Below, piece after piece: positions 1,945-14,512 of a stretch of 25,078 nucleotides of DNA (position 1 is its first letter; each line of letters opens with the position of its first letter). The notes beneath the pieces were generated by a model. The model did no database searches and was not told where the DNA came from. It saw only the letters and a list, made by a program, of their open reading frames with translations. The position numbers and the translations under genes were made by a program. Origin of the DNA: a virus; the UHGV virus genome UHGV-1753993, one strand, 5' to 3'.

Positions 1945-2574
1945 TCAATAAATGCCAACTATGACATGACCACCAAGTCTATTGTTGATAGCTGTGCAAA
2001 TTGCATCAGCATCTTCATATTGCAAATTTGCAAACATAATATGTTCTGGTCCAGGTGAAGTTACACTGCCACTATTCATATGCAATTGGCGCCATTGTTC
2101 AAACATTGCAATTGCATCATCTTGGTAATCAAATCCGCCAACAAGATATGCATCAGGCGCGTATTGCCTCACATATGTTGTGGTGCCAAACTCTTCACCA
2201 AGTGCTGCTGCACCATATTCATCGCAGTCACTAATTCGAATTTGATTGCCATTTGGCAAATACTTGTTAGGATTTGCAGGATAAAACCATGGTAGCACAC
2301 CCAGTTTGTTGACACATATGTCAATGTTGTTTTTTGATGCAGGCTCACCAAATGTTACCAAACATGAGCCATTGCCCATCATGACAGTGTTTTCATGCAT
2401 GCCAACAACATATTTGGTGCCTTTTGGCTCATATGTGCTGAATGTCCATAAGCCTGTTTCAGCATCTGATTGCACTTGGTTGCTAATGTAGCCATCAACT
2501 GACCACATATTGACTGCTACAGATGGAATGTGAGCAACTTGTTCTGAGTCATAATCTCTGATGTAGCCAGACAC
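1945..2574 (-). CDS. Hypothetical protein, distant homolog of the variable family (shares LPWFY and FEQWRQLHMNSG-type motifs); start uncertain
   Basis: Track ORF (209 aa; listed start is GTG). A possible leader ATG at 2645 (MQIPRNWGGG) runs into the C11/G11 tract at 2616-2626 and is -1 out of frame with the body. Confidence 0.6.
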   Translation of the reverse strand: MSGYIRDYDSEQVAHIPSVAVNMWSVDGYISNQVQSDAETGLWTFSTYEPKGTKYVVGMHENTVMMGNGSCLVTFGEPASKNNIDICVNKLGVLPWFYPANPNKYLPNGNQIRISDCDEYGAAALGEEFGTTTYVRQYAPDAYLVGGFDYQDDAIAMFEQWRQLHMNSGSVTSPGPEHIMFANLQYEDADAICTAINNRLGGHVIVGIY

Positions 2575-2615
2575 TTCTTCTACGAATGTAGGTCCAGTTT
2601 GGAGGGCTTGTTGTG

Positions 2616-2626
2616 CCCCCCCCCCC
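2616..2626. repeat. Homopolymer C11 (G11 on the minus-strand mRNA), with adjacent AGTT forming an inverted-repeat arm
   Basis: Read directly; partner arm AACTGGGGGGGG at 2914-2925. Confidence 0.9.
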
Positions 2627-2650
2627 AGTTACGAGGGATTTGCATATGAA

Positions 2651-2836
2651 TTGAGTTTTTGAAATGAGTTGAGTTTTGATGCAAGATGCAAAAACTTTTG
2701 AGTTTTGATGCAAGATGCAAAACTTTTGAGTTTTGATGCAAGATGCAAAACTTTTGAGTTTTGATGCAAGATGCAAAACAACTAAGATGTTGTTTTGATG
2801 CAAGATGCAAAACAACTAAGATGTTGTTTTGATATG
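2651..2836. repeat. Tandem direct-repeat array: 3 units of about 28 bp (TTTTGATGCAAGATGCAAAACTTTTGAG) and 2 units of 34 bp (..AAAACAACTAAGATGTTG), plus partial units
   Basis: Read directly; each unit contains the internal duplication GATGCAA-GATGCAA; no spacers, so not a CRISPR array. Confidence 0.9.
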
Positions 2837-3951: not shown

Positions 3952-3975
3952 ATGTCTAAAATTGCCAAACAGCAC

Positions 3976-4035: not shown

Positions 4036-4559
4036 TTAGCTGACTTTCTTTGCATTCTTAAGTATGATTGACACGATATCTCCATTGTTAATTTTGACAG
4101 ATGGATTTGACATTGGCAATGTAAGCTTATCACCAACGCCTAATGGATATTGCCATGCCATAGAAGTTAACAGTATGGGATTACCACCAGGGCTTGTGTT
4201 GTTAATGTTGGCATACACATTGATGTTGTAAACGTTGCCAGTACCACGGCCATCTGCTGCATAACAGCCAAAGCCAATTTTTGCAGCAAAGTTTGAGTAG
4301 TCATAAGCTTTTGGCATCATTAACGCACCAATGGCGTAAGTTTCACCACCGCGGCATTCCATCATTTTGATAGGAAAGCCTGACGTTGGTATGTTAACTG
4401 TAACATTGTCAAGCGATATTGTACCTTGTATCGCCATTGTTTCAGTAGTGCCAAAGTTGTACAATGAAGCGTCACCAATAACAAGCTGCAGGTAGACTAA
4501 TTTAGAGCCCCCCCCGCTAGCACTTGTTGACGCTCAAACCAAAATTGTGGAGTTTTCAT
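4036..4559 (-). CDS. Variable family member 4; leader MKTPQFWFERQQVLAGG (ATG 4559) offset by -1 from the body at the C8/G8 tract (4508-4515)
   Basis: Leader frame stops 3 codons after the tract; body frame opens at the tract (SGGGSKLVYLQ..) and continues to the stop at 4036; body is G/N-rich. Confidence 0.5.
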
Positions 4560-4594: not shown

Positions 4595-5296
4595 TTAGCC
4601 AAGTGTTGTTTTATCTGTGATGAACACATGAAATATGTCAGATAGTGTTTTCACAATTATAGCGCCCTCATATATTGGCGAAACATAAGAAGCATTAGCA
4701 ATAGACCATATGCCGACATGTGTCAATTTTGCAGATAAGCTATTGCCAACTCTAAAATTAGCAGCCAAGCTATTTGCAGCTATGTTAACTGACACATTGA
4801 CATTAGATGCTACTGATGTATTGCAAATTGTTGACAGTTTAATTGCCACTGGCAACGCAGATTCAAGCATTGCGGTGCAAATGCATGTATTGCCACTGTT
4901 AGTTATTGTTACTTCGCATGATTTGAACGCTTCAATATTGACATTTAGTGTGTTGTTAGCAATATCTGCGCCATATATAAGTGTAAATGCTGCAGATGAC
5001 CAAGACATATCTGCAGCATCAGGCGTGTCAATAAGATAAAATTGTGCGTCTTTTGTTGAGCCGACTAATTGCTTATAGTCATCACCAGTTATGTAAAATG
5101 TGATGCCATCACCATTATTGCTTGTGTACAAGCCTCTTTGAAGTGTTCGCCCTGTTTCAATACAGTGTAAATAGCAAGTTAGTCCATTAACAATGTTATC
5201 AGCATTGTCACGCACGTATATGTGCACGCCTGTGTCACGAAGAGCCACCCCCGCGATTGACTGCTGGCGTTCAAACCAGAGTTGAGTAGTTTTCAT
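4595..5296 (-). CDS. Variable family member 2, intact in-frame copy (233 aa)
   Basis: Track ORF with ATG start; leader MKTTQLWFERQQSIAG then VALRDT..; tract is GGGGGTGG (T-interrupted), giving a continuous frame. Confidence 0.75.
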   Translation of the reverse strand: MKTTQLWFERQQSIAGVALRDTGVHIYVRDNADNIVNGLTCYLHCIETGRTLQRGLYTSNNGDGITFYITGDDYKQLVGSTKDAQFYLIDTPDAADMSWSSAAFTLIYGADIANNTLNVNIEAFKSCEVTITNSGNTCICTAMLESALPVAIKLSTICNTSVASNVNVSVNIAANSLAANFRVGNSLSAKLTHVGIWSIANASYVSPIYEGAIIVKTLSDIFHVFITDKTTLG

Positions 5297-5344
5297 AAGC
5301 GAAAAGACTTTTTGTATGTGAAATTTATTGACATATTATATATC
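5232..5344 (-). repeat. Family 5' module copy 2 (promoter + leader + interrupted G tract)
   Basis: Reverse complement nearly identical to 88-198 (differences: A5 vs A4 upstream of the ATG; GGGGGTGG vs GGGGGGG). Confidence 0.85.
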
Positions 5345-5416
5345 AAATCAGTGCAAATTTGATAAATTTGTAGTACAATTATCATATATCAATATAGTAT
5401 ACAAACCTCTACAACA

Positions 5417-6242: not shown

Positions 6243-6533
6243 ATGACACCAGATTATACAGTAGCATTCAGTATTTGCGAAAACAACAAACAAGTCGCAT
6301 ATCGCAAAGCAGAAGTAGGTCCAGAACAATTTGCAGTCATGTCATCTATGCAGATTGGTGCAATCATCAATTTAACAGACAGTGTTAATGTACCTGCAGA
6401 ACGTCGTCAAGAAATGTCATCGCTGTGCGGCGCATATCGCATTATTGACATACAGTACAGTGTAAAAGTAGAAACAATATTGAGTACTTTTGCAGCTTGT
6501 CAGCATTGTGTCATCAAACTTGTGCGAGCATGA
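6243..6533 (+). CDS. Hypothetical protein (96 aa)
   Basis: Track ORF; ATG 12 nt after the preceding stop. Confidence 0.55.
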   Translation: MTPDYTVAFSICENNKQVAYRKAEVGPEQFAVMSSMQIGAIINLTDSVNVPAERRQEMSSLCGAYRIIDIQYSVKVETILSTFAACQHCVIKLVRA

Positions 6534-6670
6534 AATTGAACAAGTTGTTCAAATTGCGTCAACGTTTCATAACTTGTTCATTGATTCTAATGTTCGCATG
6601 GAACTGTGCAATGCTGCAAACAATGATATCGATTCTGTAGTCAAGCGAATTCTTAACATCTCAATGTAAC

Positions 6671-6967
6671 ATGCAAACTAATATGCAAACTAACACATTA
6701 TATCTTGCAAGGCTATCTAATGGTCAAGACATTGGCATAACAGAACTTGCACAGCCAGTATTTCCATGTTTTGTGTATGATGACACATCAAAGGTCTATC
6801 TTACACAAGCAGAACTTGAACAGCAGCCTCATGCAAGACATTGTCATGCAATACCAGATGCACATGCATTACATGTCAGTGGTGTTGGTTATGTACGAGG
6901 CTGGACTGAATTATTTGCCGCATGCAAATCATTAAGAACTGACATCATAAAACTTGAGCGTATATGA
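6671..6967 (+). CDS. Hypothetical protein, paralog of 7291-7551
   Basis: Track ORF; shared motifs ITEL.QPV..C and GYVR.W.EL with 7291-7551. Confidence 0.6.
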   Translation: MQTNMQTNTLYLARLSNGQDIGITELAQPVFPCFVYDDTSKVYLTQAELEQQPHARHCHAIPDAHALHVSGVGYVRGWTELFAACKSLRTDIIKLERI

Positions 6968-7555: not shown

Positions 7556-7918
7556 ATGAAACGATTTACATTGTTGTTCATTGCAATTGCATGCATTGCA
7601 TGTGCTGCAGTTAAGCCAACATATGTGTCAACTGTCACTTTGCAACCACGAGAATTTGTTGATAGTGTATGCAATGCACATAATACGCATTTGCCTGAAA
7701 TTGATGTGTGGCATGCTCAAGCGACTGATTCTACTTGTCTTGTTGCAAGAGTAGATACGACATTCAAACATGCTCGATACATTACTACTTCAGCGCCATA
7801 CATTAAGTCAAATGGCAAAGTCGACAACAAACGCTGGTATTTGATTGTTGCGTCAGTTTATCCTTATAGAGATTCTGTGCGTGTAGTGATGCGAATTGAG
7901 CCTCAATCAAATGAATGA
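7556..7918 (+). CDS. Putative secreted protein or lipoprotein (N-terminal signal MKRFTLLFIAIACIACAA with lipobox-like IAC)
   Basis: Track ORF; hydrophobic N-terminus followed by Cys, read by eye. Confidence 0.55.
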   Translation: MKRFTLLFIAIACIACAAVKPTYVSTVTLQPREFVDSVCNAHNTHLPEIDVWHAQATDSTCLVARVDTTFKHARYITTSAPYIKSNGKVDNKRWYLIVASVYPYRDSVRVVMRIEPQSNE

Positions 7919-8079
7919 CAATGCAATCTTGCTGGTTAAGCCCATCAGGTCAAGTCACCTACTGTGACTTTGCTGAACATAGCAAAACTGCTGACATATT
8001 GTTGCAAAAGCTCAAACCAGAGTTGTTGACGCATACAATATGCCAGTTAGTCTTGCGCATGACCAGTTGCAGAACTTGA
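7915..8079 (+). CDS. Small ORF (54 aa), not in ORF track
   Basis: ATG overlaps the preceding stop (ATGA); fills an otherwise gene-free gap; found by manual translation. Confidence 0.3.
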   Translation: MTMQSCWLSPSGQVTYCDFAEHSKTADILLQKLKPELLTHTICQLVLRMTSCRT

Positions 8080-8186
8080 GCAATTATGCTACATTCGATA
8101 TTACAGCTGTGGAAGGCACTACGAAATGCACAAAGGCGCAACGTGAAGCAATGTTTGACTTGACAAGGCACTGGCATGAGCAATAA
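8040..8186 (+). CDS. Small ORF (48 aa), not in ORF track
   Basis: Manual translation; ends 15 nt before the next gene; overlaps the 7915-8079 ORF in another frame. Confidence 0.25.
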   Translation: MPVSLAHDQLQNLSNYATFDITAVEGTTKCTKAQREAMFDLTRHWHEQ

Positions 8187-8201
8187 GATACATTATCTGA
8201 T

Positions 8202-9553: not shown

Positions 9554-9572
9554 CAGTTGTAAGTTTATATGC

Positions 9573-10696
9573 ATGAGTCGCTACAAGCAAGATACGCCAT
9601 TAACTGGCGCAGCTATTGAGAAAAGAATTGCAGAACTTGAAGCTGAAAGAGATGAATTGTTAAGGGTGACAGAGAATGTTAGATTAGGCAAACATAAGAC
9701 AGCTCATAGTGAAATTGCACGAAAGTACAACTACAAAATTGGGTGCTTAAAAAAGTATGGGTTTGAAAATGCGATGAAATGCACTGCGCTAAAAAAATCA
9801 AGCAATCAATACCAGACGTGCAAATAATGACGTTGATGCAATGATTGCAAAAATGCAAGCAACAAACTTAAAACGTTATGGCCACGCAAATGGCAATGTA
9901 GAAAAAATTACTGCAACTAAAGTACAGCGATTTGGCAATGGCTATGGCAACAAAGCAAAGGCAATTGATACCAAAAAAACGTAAATATGGCAATGCATGG
10001 GGTGACCGCTCAAAAATCTGTGCAACAAATTTAGAACGTTATGGTTATGCAAATGGCAATGTTGCTAAAATGTGTAAAACTAAACGTGCACGATGGGGCA
10101 ACGCGTTTGGCAATTTGACTTTGATTCGTGAACGTTTAGCAGACTTGTATGGCGCTGTATGCCATTTTAGCGTGCGCTCAAAGTCAAAGCCATGTTCAAA
10201 GCTTGAGTTATTTGTGCATGATAAGATATTACATGCTCTTGGCATTAACTTTGAATATTCACATTTAATAGGTGGCAGATTGTATGATTTGCGATATAAT
10301 GACATAGTTATAGAAATTAGCCCAACAATATCGCACAATAGCACGTACAGTTTTGCATATCTAAATAATAGAACACATAATAATGTGCCAATGCATACGC
10401 ATTATCATTTTGATAAGACTCAACTTGCTCTCAAACATGGCTACATATGCATAACAATTTTTGACTGGCATAACTTAAACGACGTTGTGTCAATTGTTGG
10501 TATGCATTTAGCAAAGCTATCAATAAACTCAACAGACTTCGCACTCAATCCGCAGTTGTCAGATGACAAGTCAACAATTCGCAAACACTGGTGTCATTTG
10601 AAGACAAAAGAGCATATTGAAGACTGCGGACAAGATGAGCAAGAGATGATTGACGCTGGTTATGTTGCAGTGTACGATTGCGGTCATGCAAGATAA
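9573..10696 (+). CDS. Repeat-containing protein (five or more units of about 18 aa, T-x-[KL]-x-R-[YFW]-G-x-[AG]-x-G-[NV]), interrupted by +1 frame breaks at two A7 tracts
   Basis: Track ORFs 9573-9827 and 9932-10696 plus an unlisted 9841-9984 ORF; the amino-acid repeat continues across frames 0, 1 and 2, switching at A7 9791-9797 and A7 9973-9979. Confidence 0.5.
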
Positions 10697-10722: not shown

Positions 10723-10804
10723 CATATTCATATACAATATGAATATGCATGTTGCACAATACATATACAAATAACAAATAAACTTCTGAAGATTTTCTGA
10801 AGAG
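10723..10804 (+). promoter_or_regulatory. Upstream region of the SSB gene: hairpin (11-bp stem CATATTCATAT / ATATGAATATG, 10723-10747), TGTTGCACAAT motif (10750-10760), direct repeat TTCTGAAGA x2
   Basis: Read directly; function inferred from position only. Confidence 0.35.
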
Positions 10805-10847
10805 TTCATTTCAAACTTTTTGTTAAACTTTCTAAAATTTTATTGCG

Positions 10848-11981
10848 ATGTCACAAATTGAAAATGGACAGACCAGCAATCAGCCTCTGTCAATCTTTGA
10901 TGTCCAGCCGGACAATGTAGCAAGCTTTGCTAAGCCGGAACGTTCTGCAGGACCCGAGTTCTTTAATCCTAAGCCGCAGGATTCGCCAAAGGACAAAGTT
11001 TATCGTGCAGTTATTCGCGTATTGCCGAATTTAGCAGACCCAGCAGTACCGATTTCAATCGTTCGTTATTACTGGTTTGCAACTGGCCATAATCAGGGCT
11101 TCCGCTACAATTCGCCGAGCTCGCCTAATCCGCATCCTGAAAATCCGGAAAATTTGATGAAACCCTACGGTTGGTGTCCCATTTCGGCATTCTACTGGGA
11201 ACTCATCAATACCAAGGATGCTCAGCAGGAAGCACTTGCAAAGCGAGAGTTCAGTATGCAGAGTCAGTACACTTGCCTCGTGCAAATCAAGGCTGATTCA
11301 GTGCACCCTGAGAACGTTGGGAAAGTACTCCCATATCGACTCCCTGCTGCATTGTATAAAAGAATGCTGAGCTCAATGAAGCCGACTGACGAAGACATCC
11401 AGATGGGCGCTCAGCCTATGGACATGTTCCATCCTGTTAAGGGCCATGACATTCTCTTGAAGATTACGCTTAAAGACGTCAATGGCGTTGAAATGCGTGA
11501 CTACGAGACTTCGACGATTTCGCCCAACGTATCGTCGATGCTGCTTGCAGATGGCAGCCTTGTTGACCAGGCGAAGTATGACACTGACCCTGCATACAAG
11601 CAGCAAATCATGCAGCAGATTGTCGACATGCTCAAGGAGTACCCGAATGTCGAAAAGGAGTGGGGCTACCACGAAGCTTCTGATGACATCAAGCGTCAGG
11701 TTAAGATGCGCCTTGCTAACTACAAGGATGTGTCGGATATCTGGCCTGACATTGTCATCAATCCGTCAGCAGCTCAGCAGGCACAGACTACTCAGCCTGC
11801 ACCAGCAGCAGCTCCGGCAGCTGCGCCTGCTACTGCACCAGCAGCTCAGACAGCCATTGACCCGTTTGCAGCAGCTTCAGCACCTGCAGCAGAGCCTGTA
11901 CCTGCAGCAGCTCCAGCAGCAGCGCCTACAGCAGCAACGATGGATGCTGAAACTGAAGCATTCATCAATGGGCTCAAGTAG
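10848..11981 (+). CDS. T4 gp32-like single-stranded DNA-binding protein with a Pro/Ala-rich C-terminal linker
   Basis: Matches to T4 gp32 recalled from memory (AVIRVLPN vs AVIRFLPS; ENVGKVLPYR vs ENEGKVFKYR); distinct codon usage and higher GC than neighbours. Confidence 0.75.
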   Translation: MSQIENGQTSNQPLSIFDVQPDNVASFAKPERSAGPEFFNPKPQDSPKDKVYRAVIRVLPNLADPAVPISIVRYYWFATGHNQGFRYNSPSSPNPHPENPENLMKPYGWCPISAFYWELINTKDAQQEALAKREFSMQSQYTCLVQIKADSVHPENVGKVLPYRLPAALYKRMLSSMKPTDEDIQMGAQPMDMFHPVKGHDILLKITLKDVNGVEMRDYETSTISPNVSSMLLADGSLVDQAKYDTDPAYKQQIMQQIVDMLKEYPNVEKEWGYHEASDDIKRQVKMRLANYKDVSDIWPDIVINPSAAQQAQTTQPAPAAAPAAAPATAPAAQTAIDPFAAASAPAAEPVPAAAPAAAPTAATMDAETEAFINGLK

Positions 11982-13655: not shown

Positions 13656-13796
13656 TATTGTGCAAAAGTTGATGCTACGTAGTACATTAATCATATAACA
13701 AAAAACAATATGCAACCATACACTTCTACTGAAATCAAAGCAATGTTGCGGCCTATAGTATAGCAGCGAGACCTCAAAGGTGTATTTGACACTTAT

Positions 13797-14150
13797 TTGC
13801 TTGTCACAAAGCGAATTCAAGCTGCAGCAAATGCAACACAACAGCCTGCAACAAAAGTTGATTTTGACAGAGCGTCAAATCAGTTTGGCTTAGCATTGAC
13901 TGAGCTGTACAAAGAGCAGGGCATCAAAGCAGTAGATTTCGTAGAACTTGATATCTATAAGCGCATCTTTGCAGCACAAATTGCAAAAGCAATGCGTGCT
14001 GAAGATGTTGACATAGTCAAGTCTGCAAAGAAGCTTGAGCGCATCATGCAGTATGACCTTAAAAAGCTCATCAACGTCAAAGACAAGAACATCAGCAAAG
14101 GCACTGCAAGATTGCTTGAAGCTGTTCTTGCTGCAGAAGATGATGAGTAA
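13797..14150 (+). CDS. Hypothetical protein; no canonical ATG near the 5' end (track start is TTG)
   Basis: Open frame 13764-14150; an in-frame ATG at 13710 is separated from it by a single TAG at 13761-13763. Confidence 0.4.
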   Translation: MLVTKRIQAAANATQQPATKVDFDRASNQFGLALTELYKEQGIKAVDFVELDIYKRIFAAQIAKAMRAEDVDIVKSAKKLERIMQYDLKKLINVKDKNISKGTARLLEAVLAAEDDE

Positions 14151-14194
14151 TGCAAATATACATATATTGTCAACAAACAAACATAAAAAAAGAT

Positions 14195-14512
14195 ATGCTG
14201 CAACTCAAACATAAAGCCGAAATGGCTCGAGCACTTGCAAACAATCCACTCGTTGTAGTGAAGTTCAGTGCGCCATGGTGTGTGCCGTGTCAAGGTTATG
14301 CGCCAATTTTCGAGTCAACTGAAAAGAAATTCAATGGCAAGGTGACATTTGCTGAAGTGAATGTTGAAGAGTGCGATGAACTTGATAGCACTCACAATGT
14401 TCGTTCAGTACCAACGACAATTATCTTTCGTGATTGCATTGAAGTTGGCCGTGCAACTGGTGCATTGTCAGCTATTGCACTTGAACAACTGATTGTCGAC
14501 AATATGCAATAA
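14195..14512 (+). CDS. Thioredoxin
   Basis: Active site WCVPC, cis-Pro loop VPT, about 105 aa; start re-set to ATG 14195 (track start 14150 lies in an AT-rich leader). Confidence 0.85.
   Translation: MLQLKHKAEMARALANNPLVVVKFSAPWCVPCQGYAPIFESTEKKFNGKVTFAEVNVEECDELDSTHNVRSVPTTIIFRDCIEVGRATGALSAIALEQLIVDNMQ

Follow-up and report, generated by a model that had tools for sequence, protein, structure and literature searches.

A protein whose amino acid repeats continue from one reading frame into the next raises the question of whether its frames are joined during expression or were broken by mutation. Such a protein is encoded at positions 9573-10696 (+ strand) of the window, by which we mean the whole 25,078-nt stretch of virus genome UHGV-1753993 that was analysed. 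One protein is split there over three frames, with a frame change at each of two A7 runs, exactly where a preliminary description of the locus had placed the switches (9791-9797 and 9973-9979). The features of the gene are arranged as follows.

9573-9827, + strand: ORF in frame 0, 84 aa, with its stop at 9825-9827
9841-9984, + strand: ORF in frame 1, 47 aa, with a TAA stop at 9982-9984
9932/9944-10696, + strand: ORF in frame 2, 254/250 aa
9573-9797, + strand: segment 1 of the split gene, frame 0, with the start codon, an N-terminal coiled coil (residues 13-32) and the first repeat unit, KIGCLKKYGFENAMKCTA
9791-9797, + strand: A7 run 1; A6 in the intact sister allele (GCG CTA AAA AAT CAA = A L K N Q), A3 in an ortholog of 76% identity
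9798-9979, + strand: segment 2, frame 1, with a degenerate unit followed by units TNLKRYGHANGNVEKITA and TKVQRFGNGYGNKAKAID
9973-9979, + strand: A7 run 2; A6 in the intact sister allele (ACC AAA AAA CGT = T K K R), A4 in the ortholog of 76% identity
9980-10696, + strand: segment 3, frame 2, with 3 more repeat units, the C-terminal nuclease domain and the stop codon
9735-10126, + strand: 18-aa repeat array across all three frames, T-x-x-x-[KR]-[YFW]-G-x-x-x-G-[ND]-x-x-K-x-x-x
10199-10693, + strand: Vsr-like (EDxHD-type) nuclease domain, residues about 209-373 of the repaired protein

The proposal that a repeat protein continues across the three frames is borne out by the ORF layout, by three-frame translation and by a tblastn search with P0001, the intact protein of a sister genome, which matches the window at 9573-9803, 9736-9978 and 9902-10693 in three successive frames (E-values of 0 to 4e-35). 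The three-frame pattern of 9573-10696 is far beyond chance. In silico removal of one A per run restores an ORF of 1122 nt encoding 373 aa, so that each A7 is equivalent to A6, as had been suggested, and A6 is what the DNA encoding P0001 carries at both sites. The repaired ORF contains six [KR][YFW]G units with an 18-aa spacing (residues 61, 101, 119, 137, 155 and 173) and a degenerate unit between the first two (residues 61 and 101). At the DNA level, the copies of CGTTATGG at 9874 and 10037 are indeed 163 nt apart (3 x 54 + 1), which is not a multiple of 3, while the two A7 insertions are spaced by 182 nt. The statement that these are the only two coding A7 runs of the window stands only in part: both runs are present, but a third A7 (14185-14191) falls within an ENA-called ORF (14150-14512). 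Judging from the sister genome, which has A5 there and starts the corresponding gene downstream of the run, this third A7 is probably non-coding.

Uninterrupted orthologs of the gene exist, as single ORFs, and the ancestral product appears as the single protein of about 370 aa that had been anticipated, with 373 aa in both P0001 and P0125. P0001, retrieved by protein search with 99% identity and 100% coverage relative to the repaired protein, is encoded by an uninterrupted gene with A6 at both sites on ena:ERZ27260843:k119_20060 (181,037 bp). The window gene differs from it by 10 substitutions in 1122 nt, about 6 non-synonymous and 4 synonymous, which are too few to show relaxed selection. P0125, a second intact 373-aa allele found on a 116-kb contig, belongs to the 90% cluster of P0001; in that cluster, the split products (84-aa and 250-aa fragments) were seen on the window's contig only. 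The window itself corresponds to ena:ERZ27261429:k119_91679 (24,911 bp) extended by 166 nt at its 5' end and by one C within a poly-C run. A7/A7 is found in both the window and this ENA contig, two versions that may share the same reads. In ortholog P0002 (76% identity), the two sites read CT-AAAGCA and ACT-AAAATA, i.e., A3 and A4. From these comparisons, the A6 runs appear particular to this lineage and the A7 state particular to this contig.

About 25 other full-length homologs share 31-76% identity with the repaired protein. All close homologs (26/26) are single ORFs with coil, repeats and nuclease in one chain, their main length difference being the number of repeat units, and none of these 26 displays an architecture of three small genes. 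The 12 closest IMG/VR loci are also uninterrupted, with the exception of L011, which covers query residues 124-372 only, and of L012 (IMGVR_UViG_3300045988_149023), whose in-frame stop at 3955-3957 may reflect nonsense mutation or codon reassignment. Locus L014 (4011-5147) was considered as another split family member and rejected: its intact member precedes a distinct nuclease-like gene, which has the same INPTFSHNS nuclease core without the 18-aa repeats. Two Logan contigs of the P0001 cluster encode short products (P0123 and P0124, 127 and 135 aa) that contain an extra glycine (RWGGNAFG), probably through expansion of a DNA G4 to G7, and end at IFDWL; they may represent further variant or broken alleles. 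An exact-pattern scan for either run context with run lengths of 6 to 8 gave no match in the JGI metagenome contigs or IMG/VR. Likewise, neither the region nor the full window had a megablast match among 50,697 phage records, and tblastn of P0001 against the phage records returned one weak match, in an unannotated record.

What the intact gene would encode was approached from the repaired protein. Its AlphaFold2 model (mean pLDDT 76.8) comprises a long N-terminal helix (13-32), a helix-loop run (44-192) in which each repeat unit forms one 12-residue helix and a 6-residue loop, and an alpha/beta domain (209-368). The 18-aa helix-loop repeats probably bind DNA; several RAP domains are listed alongside the model. 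The candidate catalytic residues are D238 (10286-10288), E247, S249, H254 and D280. Across the 26 homologs, D238 and H254 are invariant and E247 is nearly so. Searches of the repaired protein against Pfam, PHROGs and NCBIfam gave only noise and a sub-threshold match to Pfam DUF7487 (17 bits for the window copy vs a curated cut-off of 27), a domain that is matched by 21 of the 26 homologs (best E-value 2.9e-11) and for which no literature was found under that name. The family profile gave no meaningful match against PDB sequences.

Phage Hef-type homing endonucleases belong to the EDxHD family, which is defined by a Vsr-like D196, an acidic residue at the position of Vsr F62, N208, H213 and D222 (PMC3239194); the free-standing Hef-type enzymes of T4-like phages were reported by Sandegren et al. 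2005, as cited in PMC3239194. While the preliminary description rightly recognized a repeat protein, it did not give the protein's identity. We conclude from fold, motif and transitive similarity that the product is a putative compact Hef-like, Vsr-fold homing endonuclease. The catalytic domain presents the Vsr-like variant of the PD-(D/E)xK nuclease fold, and a MAFFT alignment with 3r3p, the best PDB sequence match of the Hef-like protein of Acinetobacter phage Acj9, and with Acj9 Hef itself places D238, E247, S249 and H254 on D196, E206, N208 and H213 with identical spacing. The composite catalytic motif of I-Bth0305I (D196, E206, N208, H213, D222) can thus be followed through the family, its last position being partly conserved: D280 corresponds to D222 only when the D-K ... 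G-Y motif is read by eye, the MAFFT alignment placing the two apart. This position is D in the window copy and D or N across most of the family. The transitive link passes through P0031, a DUF7487-bearing intermediate that matches the repaired protein with an E-value of 1.1e-13 and the Acj9 Hef-like protein with 4e-24, and that also matches "homing endonuclease" genes of many T4-like, Campylobacter, Vibrio and Dickeya phages. Membership in the Hef type rests on these three lines because direct profile similarity to Hef is weak: tests against Acj9 Hef gave 6e-06 with hmmsearch at a database size of 1 and a non-significant probability of 7% with hhalign.

Comparison with characterized or annotated relatives reveals both shared and distinct traits. 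Acj9p227, annotated as a "putative Hef-like homing endonuclease", is a free-standing gene between nrdA and nrdB, while the window gene lies upstream of gp32; both are thus wedged among conserved DNA-metabolism genes of a T4-like phage. The two proteins share N-terminal K-x-G / R-Y-G repeats and the succession D...IE-x-N-[GP]-x-x-x-H, K-T, hh-I-F-[DE]-x-W and a C-terminal [YW]DCG. Like the window family, the Hef type is found in multiple copies in some genomes, e.g., those of Campylobacter phages (11 places per record). Unlike Acj9 Hef (533 aa), the window protein has only 373 aa, lacks an insert of about 130 aa between the nuclease core and the C-terminal motif, and combines a more regular 18-aa array with an N-terminal coiled coil, its copy in the window being frameshifted. 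I-Bth0305I, the EDxHD prototype (PDB 3R3P), likewise carries its DNA-binding region N-terminal to the nuclease, and D238, E247, S/N249, H254 and D280 are alignable with its motif; unlike the window family, it comes from a group I intron of recA and carries two NUMOD2/HTH motifs in place of 18-aa repeats. The window family further differs from it by having S, N or C at the N208 position and D or N at the D222 position.

The gene is located directly upstream of the gene for the gp32 ssDNA-binding protein (10848-11981). Its neighbours (C1-type peptidase, gp32, helicase, thioredoxin and dCMP deaminase) form a T4-like replication module, and the genome that hosts the gene belongs to an uncultured T4-like phage. 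At least 6 family members are scattered around the genome in each of two IMG/VR contigs (175.6 and 174.6 kb), and the listing of P0001, P0005 and P0015 with a 181,037-bp contig suggests that the three are common to one 181-kb contig. Both of these IMG/VR genomes (compared as L067 and L068) align collinearly with the window, at about 95% identity, as far as 9554 and from 10403 on. Between these positions, they carry another allele, of about 51% aa identity, also directly upstream of gp32. The locus can consequently be divided as follows.

9555-10402, + strand: variable cassette, corresponding to L067 2718-3555 and L068 2723-3560
10403-10847, + strand: 3' 294 nt of the gene and intergenic region, shared at about 95% identity with the phages that carry the other allele

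Judged by this alignment, the 5' three-quarters of the gene behaves as a cassette that can be exchanged, and the conserved flank includes the last 294 nt of the gene; gp32 of the L067/L068-type phages is 94-99% identical to that of the window. Because these 294 nt are shared with the flank, the C-terminal 55 aa are identical among proteins otherwise 50% identical. Gene conversion was considered for this identity and rejected for the P0003/P0004-type proteins, for which alternative alleles of the same locus sharing a 3' flank fit better. Relative to the 181-kb sister genome, the gene and its downstream spacer are 99% identical and the flanks 93-97%, with divergence peaking in the first 250 nt of gp32 (87.7% identity). 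Over 10800-11400, identity per 300 nt is 87.7% and 92.3%, vs about 96% elsewhere, with compensating indels inside; this stretch could be a co-conversion tract or a nuclease target region. Such an identity pattern around the gene, with divergence of the 5' end of gp32, would be expected near a mobile nuclease gene. The signs that bear on putative homing are the placement between conserved genes, the cassette swap, the presence of at least 6 copies in some genomes and the 99% vs 93-97% identity; the encoded protein would be a candidate for DNA cleavage and homing. Elsewhere in the window, the sister genome differs by the presence of an extra gene of 307 aa and unknown function between a 96-aa and a 98-aa gene (window 6533-6671 vs L003 3599-4522), a presence/absence polymorphism.

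Homopolymer runs of another kind are found at the beginning of the window. Four paralogs (135-913 on the + strand; 1790-1207, 4559-4036 and 5296-4595 on the - strand) share the near-identical leader MKT(T/P)Q(L/F)WFERQQ(S/V)(I/L)AGG, directly followed by a poly-G run: G7 at 179-185, G7 (C7) at 1740-1746, G8 (C8) at 4508-4515, and G5 at 5248-5252. The sole in-frame copy is the one with G5 (233 aa); each of its three paralogs would have to gain one G to be joined to its long ORF. The run at 4508 is C8 in the window and C7 in the sister genome. From its sequence, this phage gene family seems to be phase-variable. Inverted and direct repeats of 36-91 nt, 90-100% identical, extend over the promoters and leaders of the family (87-217, 1708-1798 and 5248-5345), the arms 87-122 and 5310-5345 being perfectly complementary. 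Further on, the C run at 2616-2626 is C11 in the window vs C10 in the contig's ENA copy. The minus-strand ORF at this run encodes 289 aa in the C10 version (window 1945-2815) and is split into products of 209 and 88 aa in the C11 version. Just upstream of the run on the minus strand, five tandem copies of a 28-34-nt unit, GTTTTGATGCAAGATGCAAAAC, occupy 2673-2825.

Homing endonuclease genes follow a cycle of invasion, fixation and decay, and truncated or frameshifted seg, mob and I-Tev genes are found in T-even phages. Recent mutational inactivation of a homing endonuclease gene by two A6-to-A7 insertions is the best explanation of the three-frame layout, and we hold it to be probable. According to this explanation, a single gene for a free-standing Hef-like homing endonuclease, with coiled coil, 18-aa repeat array and Vsr-fold nuclease, would have lost its function through independent insertions of one A into each of two lysine-codon runs (A6 to A7), both of which would be replication-slippage hot spots. 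Standard translation would then yield the 84-aa N-terminal fragment and possibly internally initiated pieces, with no full-length enzyme, an outcome corresponding to the decay phase of a selfish homing endonuclease gene. Of the traits of a pseudogene, an intact ortholog and uncompensated disruptions are seen, the 10 substitutions being too few to judge relaxed selection, and the broken copy is presumably non-functional. Lesions also occur in another family member (the in-frame stop of L012) and in a 90-aa accessory gene of this contig, whose large replication genes are intact, which agrees with decay. Since the gene is less diverged from the sister genome than its flanks are, the inactivation would be very recent, or the copy recently acquired. 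Like degenerate homing endonuclease genes, this selfish nuclease gene is broken by frameshifts and intact in close relatives; like their loci, this one is mosaic, with an adjacent essential gene that has diverged (87.7% at the 5' end of gp32 vs about 96%). Unlike in such genes, both lesions are +1 A in A6 runs, 182 nt apart. These paired insertions are the reason why the gene looked like a recoding candidate, and two of them in one 1.1-kb gene could reflect a non-random process.

We infer that both A7 runs arose by mutation and are not errors of the assembly. The opposite view, that the gene is intact in the true genome and at least one of the two sites is really A6, is unlikely, even if homopolymer length is the commonest type of indel error. 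The C10/C11 discrepancy between the two versions of the same contig means that at least one homopolymer length is unstable between them, and 4 of the 5 coding A/T runs of at least 6 in the compared stretch fall in the endonuclease gene, where run errors would mostly land. A third frameshift in the contig points in the same direction: a 90-aa accessory gene (window 7915-8190), intact in the sister genome (L003 5768-6040), is broken by an indel at 8063, which makes a third frame-breaking indel within 2 kb of the split gene. This third lesion, however, is at a CC/CCC site (CC instead of CCC) with no long homopolymer, and gp32, helicase and other large replication genes are intact in the contig. 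Moreover, 7-A runs are rarely miscalled in short-read, k119 (MEGAHIT-style) assemblies, and the contig names (k119_...) presumably denote MEGAHIT (short-read) output. Both contig versions agree on A7/A7, and ERZ27260843 and ERZ27261429 are neighbouring accessions, one with A6 and the other with A7, which argues against a systematic platform bias. The window has the longer run in 5/5 A-run differences from the sister genome. Among these, the intergenic runs at 13700-13705 (A6 vs A4) and 14185-14191 (A7 vs A5) differ by 2 nt between strains, revealing a real A-run polymorphism. That the fragments are functional on their own, with the 250-aa C-terminal ORF initiated at ATG 9944 acting as a short nuclease and the 84-aa coil as a subunit or inhibitor, is highly improbable. 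Frame 2 preserves the nuclease domain with every candidate catalytic residue, the 250-aa ORF keeps two to three repeats as well, and the gene caller used on the ENA contig predicted genes of 84, 47 and 250 aa. Yet the split architecture is found in no database homolog (26/26 close homologs are one chain), the breaks are unique to the window's contig, and ATG 9944 lies inside the frame 1 ORF with no ribosome-binding motif seen upstream by eye.

The runs could alternatively act as a leaky or reversible switch, cutting expression of a potentially toxic nuclease to a trace, with the frame restored by polymerase or ribosome slippage or by A7-to-A6 reversion. A7 is slippery, and on AAA AAA A, tRNA-Lys can pair anew in frame +1; the run length is polymorphic between close strains (A6 vs A7); and the seemingly phase-variable poly-G family lies in the same window. 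Known precedents are programmed +1 frameshifting of the prfB type and transcriptional slippage on A/T runs, as in dnaX of Thermus and IS elements (PMC5009743). For herpesvirus thymidine kinase, an indel in a G7 run is also documented to be compensated by frameshifting at a low level (PMC5009743). A low-level rescue resembling a "savior indel" combined with compensatory slippage is possible but unsupported here. As in prfB-type or dnaX slippage, a homopolymer run lies exactly at each frame junction and the direction of the shift is the same at both. We nevertheless consider a switch to be quite unlikely. Unlike in these systems, the runs are of 7 nt, below the 9 A or T described for efficient bacterial transcriptional slippage (PMC5009743), the shift site is not conserved and coincides with neither a stop nor a rare codon (each run is followed by AAA or ACG), and two independent +1 events would be needed per mRNA. 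No Shine-Dalgarno-like (GGAGG-like) element was seen by eye just upstream of either run, and no stimulatory structure was found downstream, the RNA 3' of the runs folding no better than shuffled sequence (z of -1.15 and +0.94). Relatives are simply in frame, with A6/A6 in the closest one, the runs missing (A3, A4) in the ortholog of 76% identity and single ORFs in the 26 homologs. A reading of the +1 shifts as a decoding feature yielding a full-length product is therefore not upheld. With regard to phase variation, A6 and A7 states are both seen, but the tracts are short, two in number, both off and unconserved, and the off-allele is known from one contig. An even bolder form of the switch, in which the A7 runs are a deliberate double throttle such that a Hef-like nuclease otherwise harmful to phage or host is made only upon slippage at both runs or reversion in a subpopulation, strikes us as very improbable; if true, it would amount to a bet-hedging on/off homing endonuclease beside a gene family with poly-G switches.

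Inactivation by two insertions thus being the preferred reading, the window copy appears, from these comparisons, to be a frameshifted allele and not a recoded gene. Because its three-frame layout is explained by two one-base insertions missing in sister genomes, it should not be counted as an instance of recoding. It has little weight as a decoding phenomenon and its overall value is modest, the broken state being ordinary for what is a new, divergent member of the Hef/EDxHD homing endonucleases. For annotation, it provides an example of a locus where one frameshifted pseudogene, and not three small genes, should be recorded. The analysis also documents a cassette-like allele swap upstream of gp32, and it ties a compact, unannotated, multi-copy family of uncultured T4-like phages, matched weakly by DUF7487, to the Hef/EDxHD Vsr-fold endonucleases.
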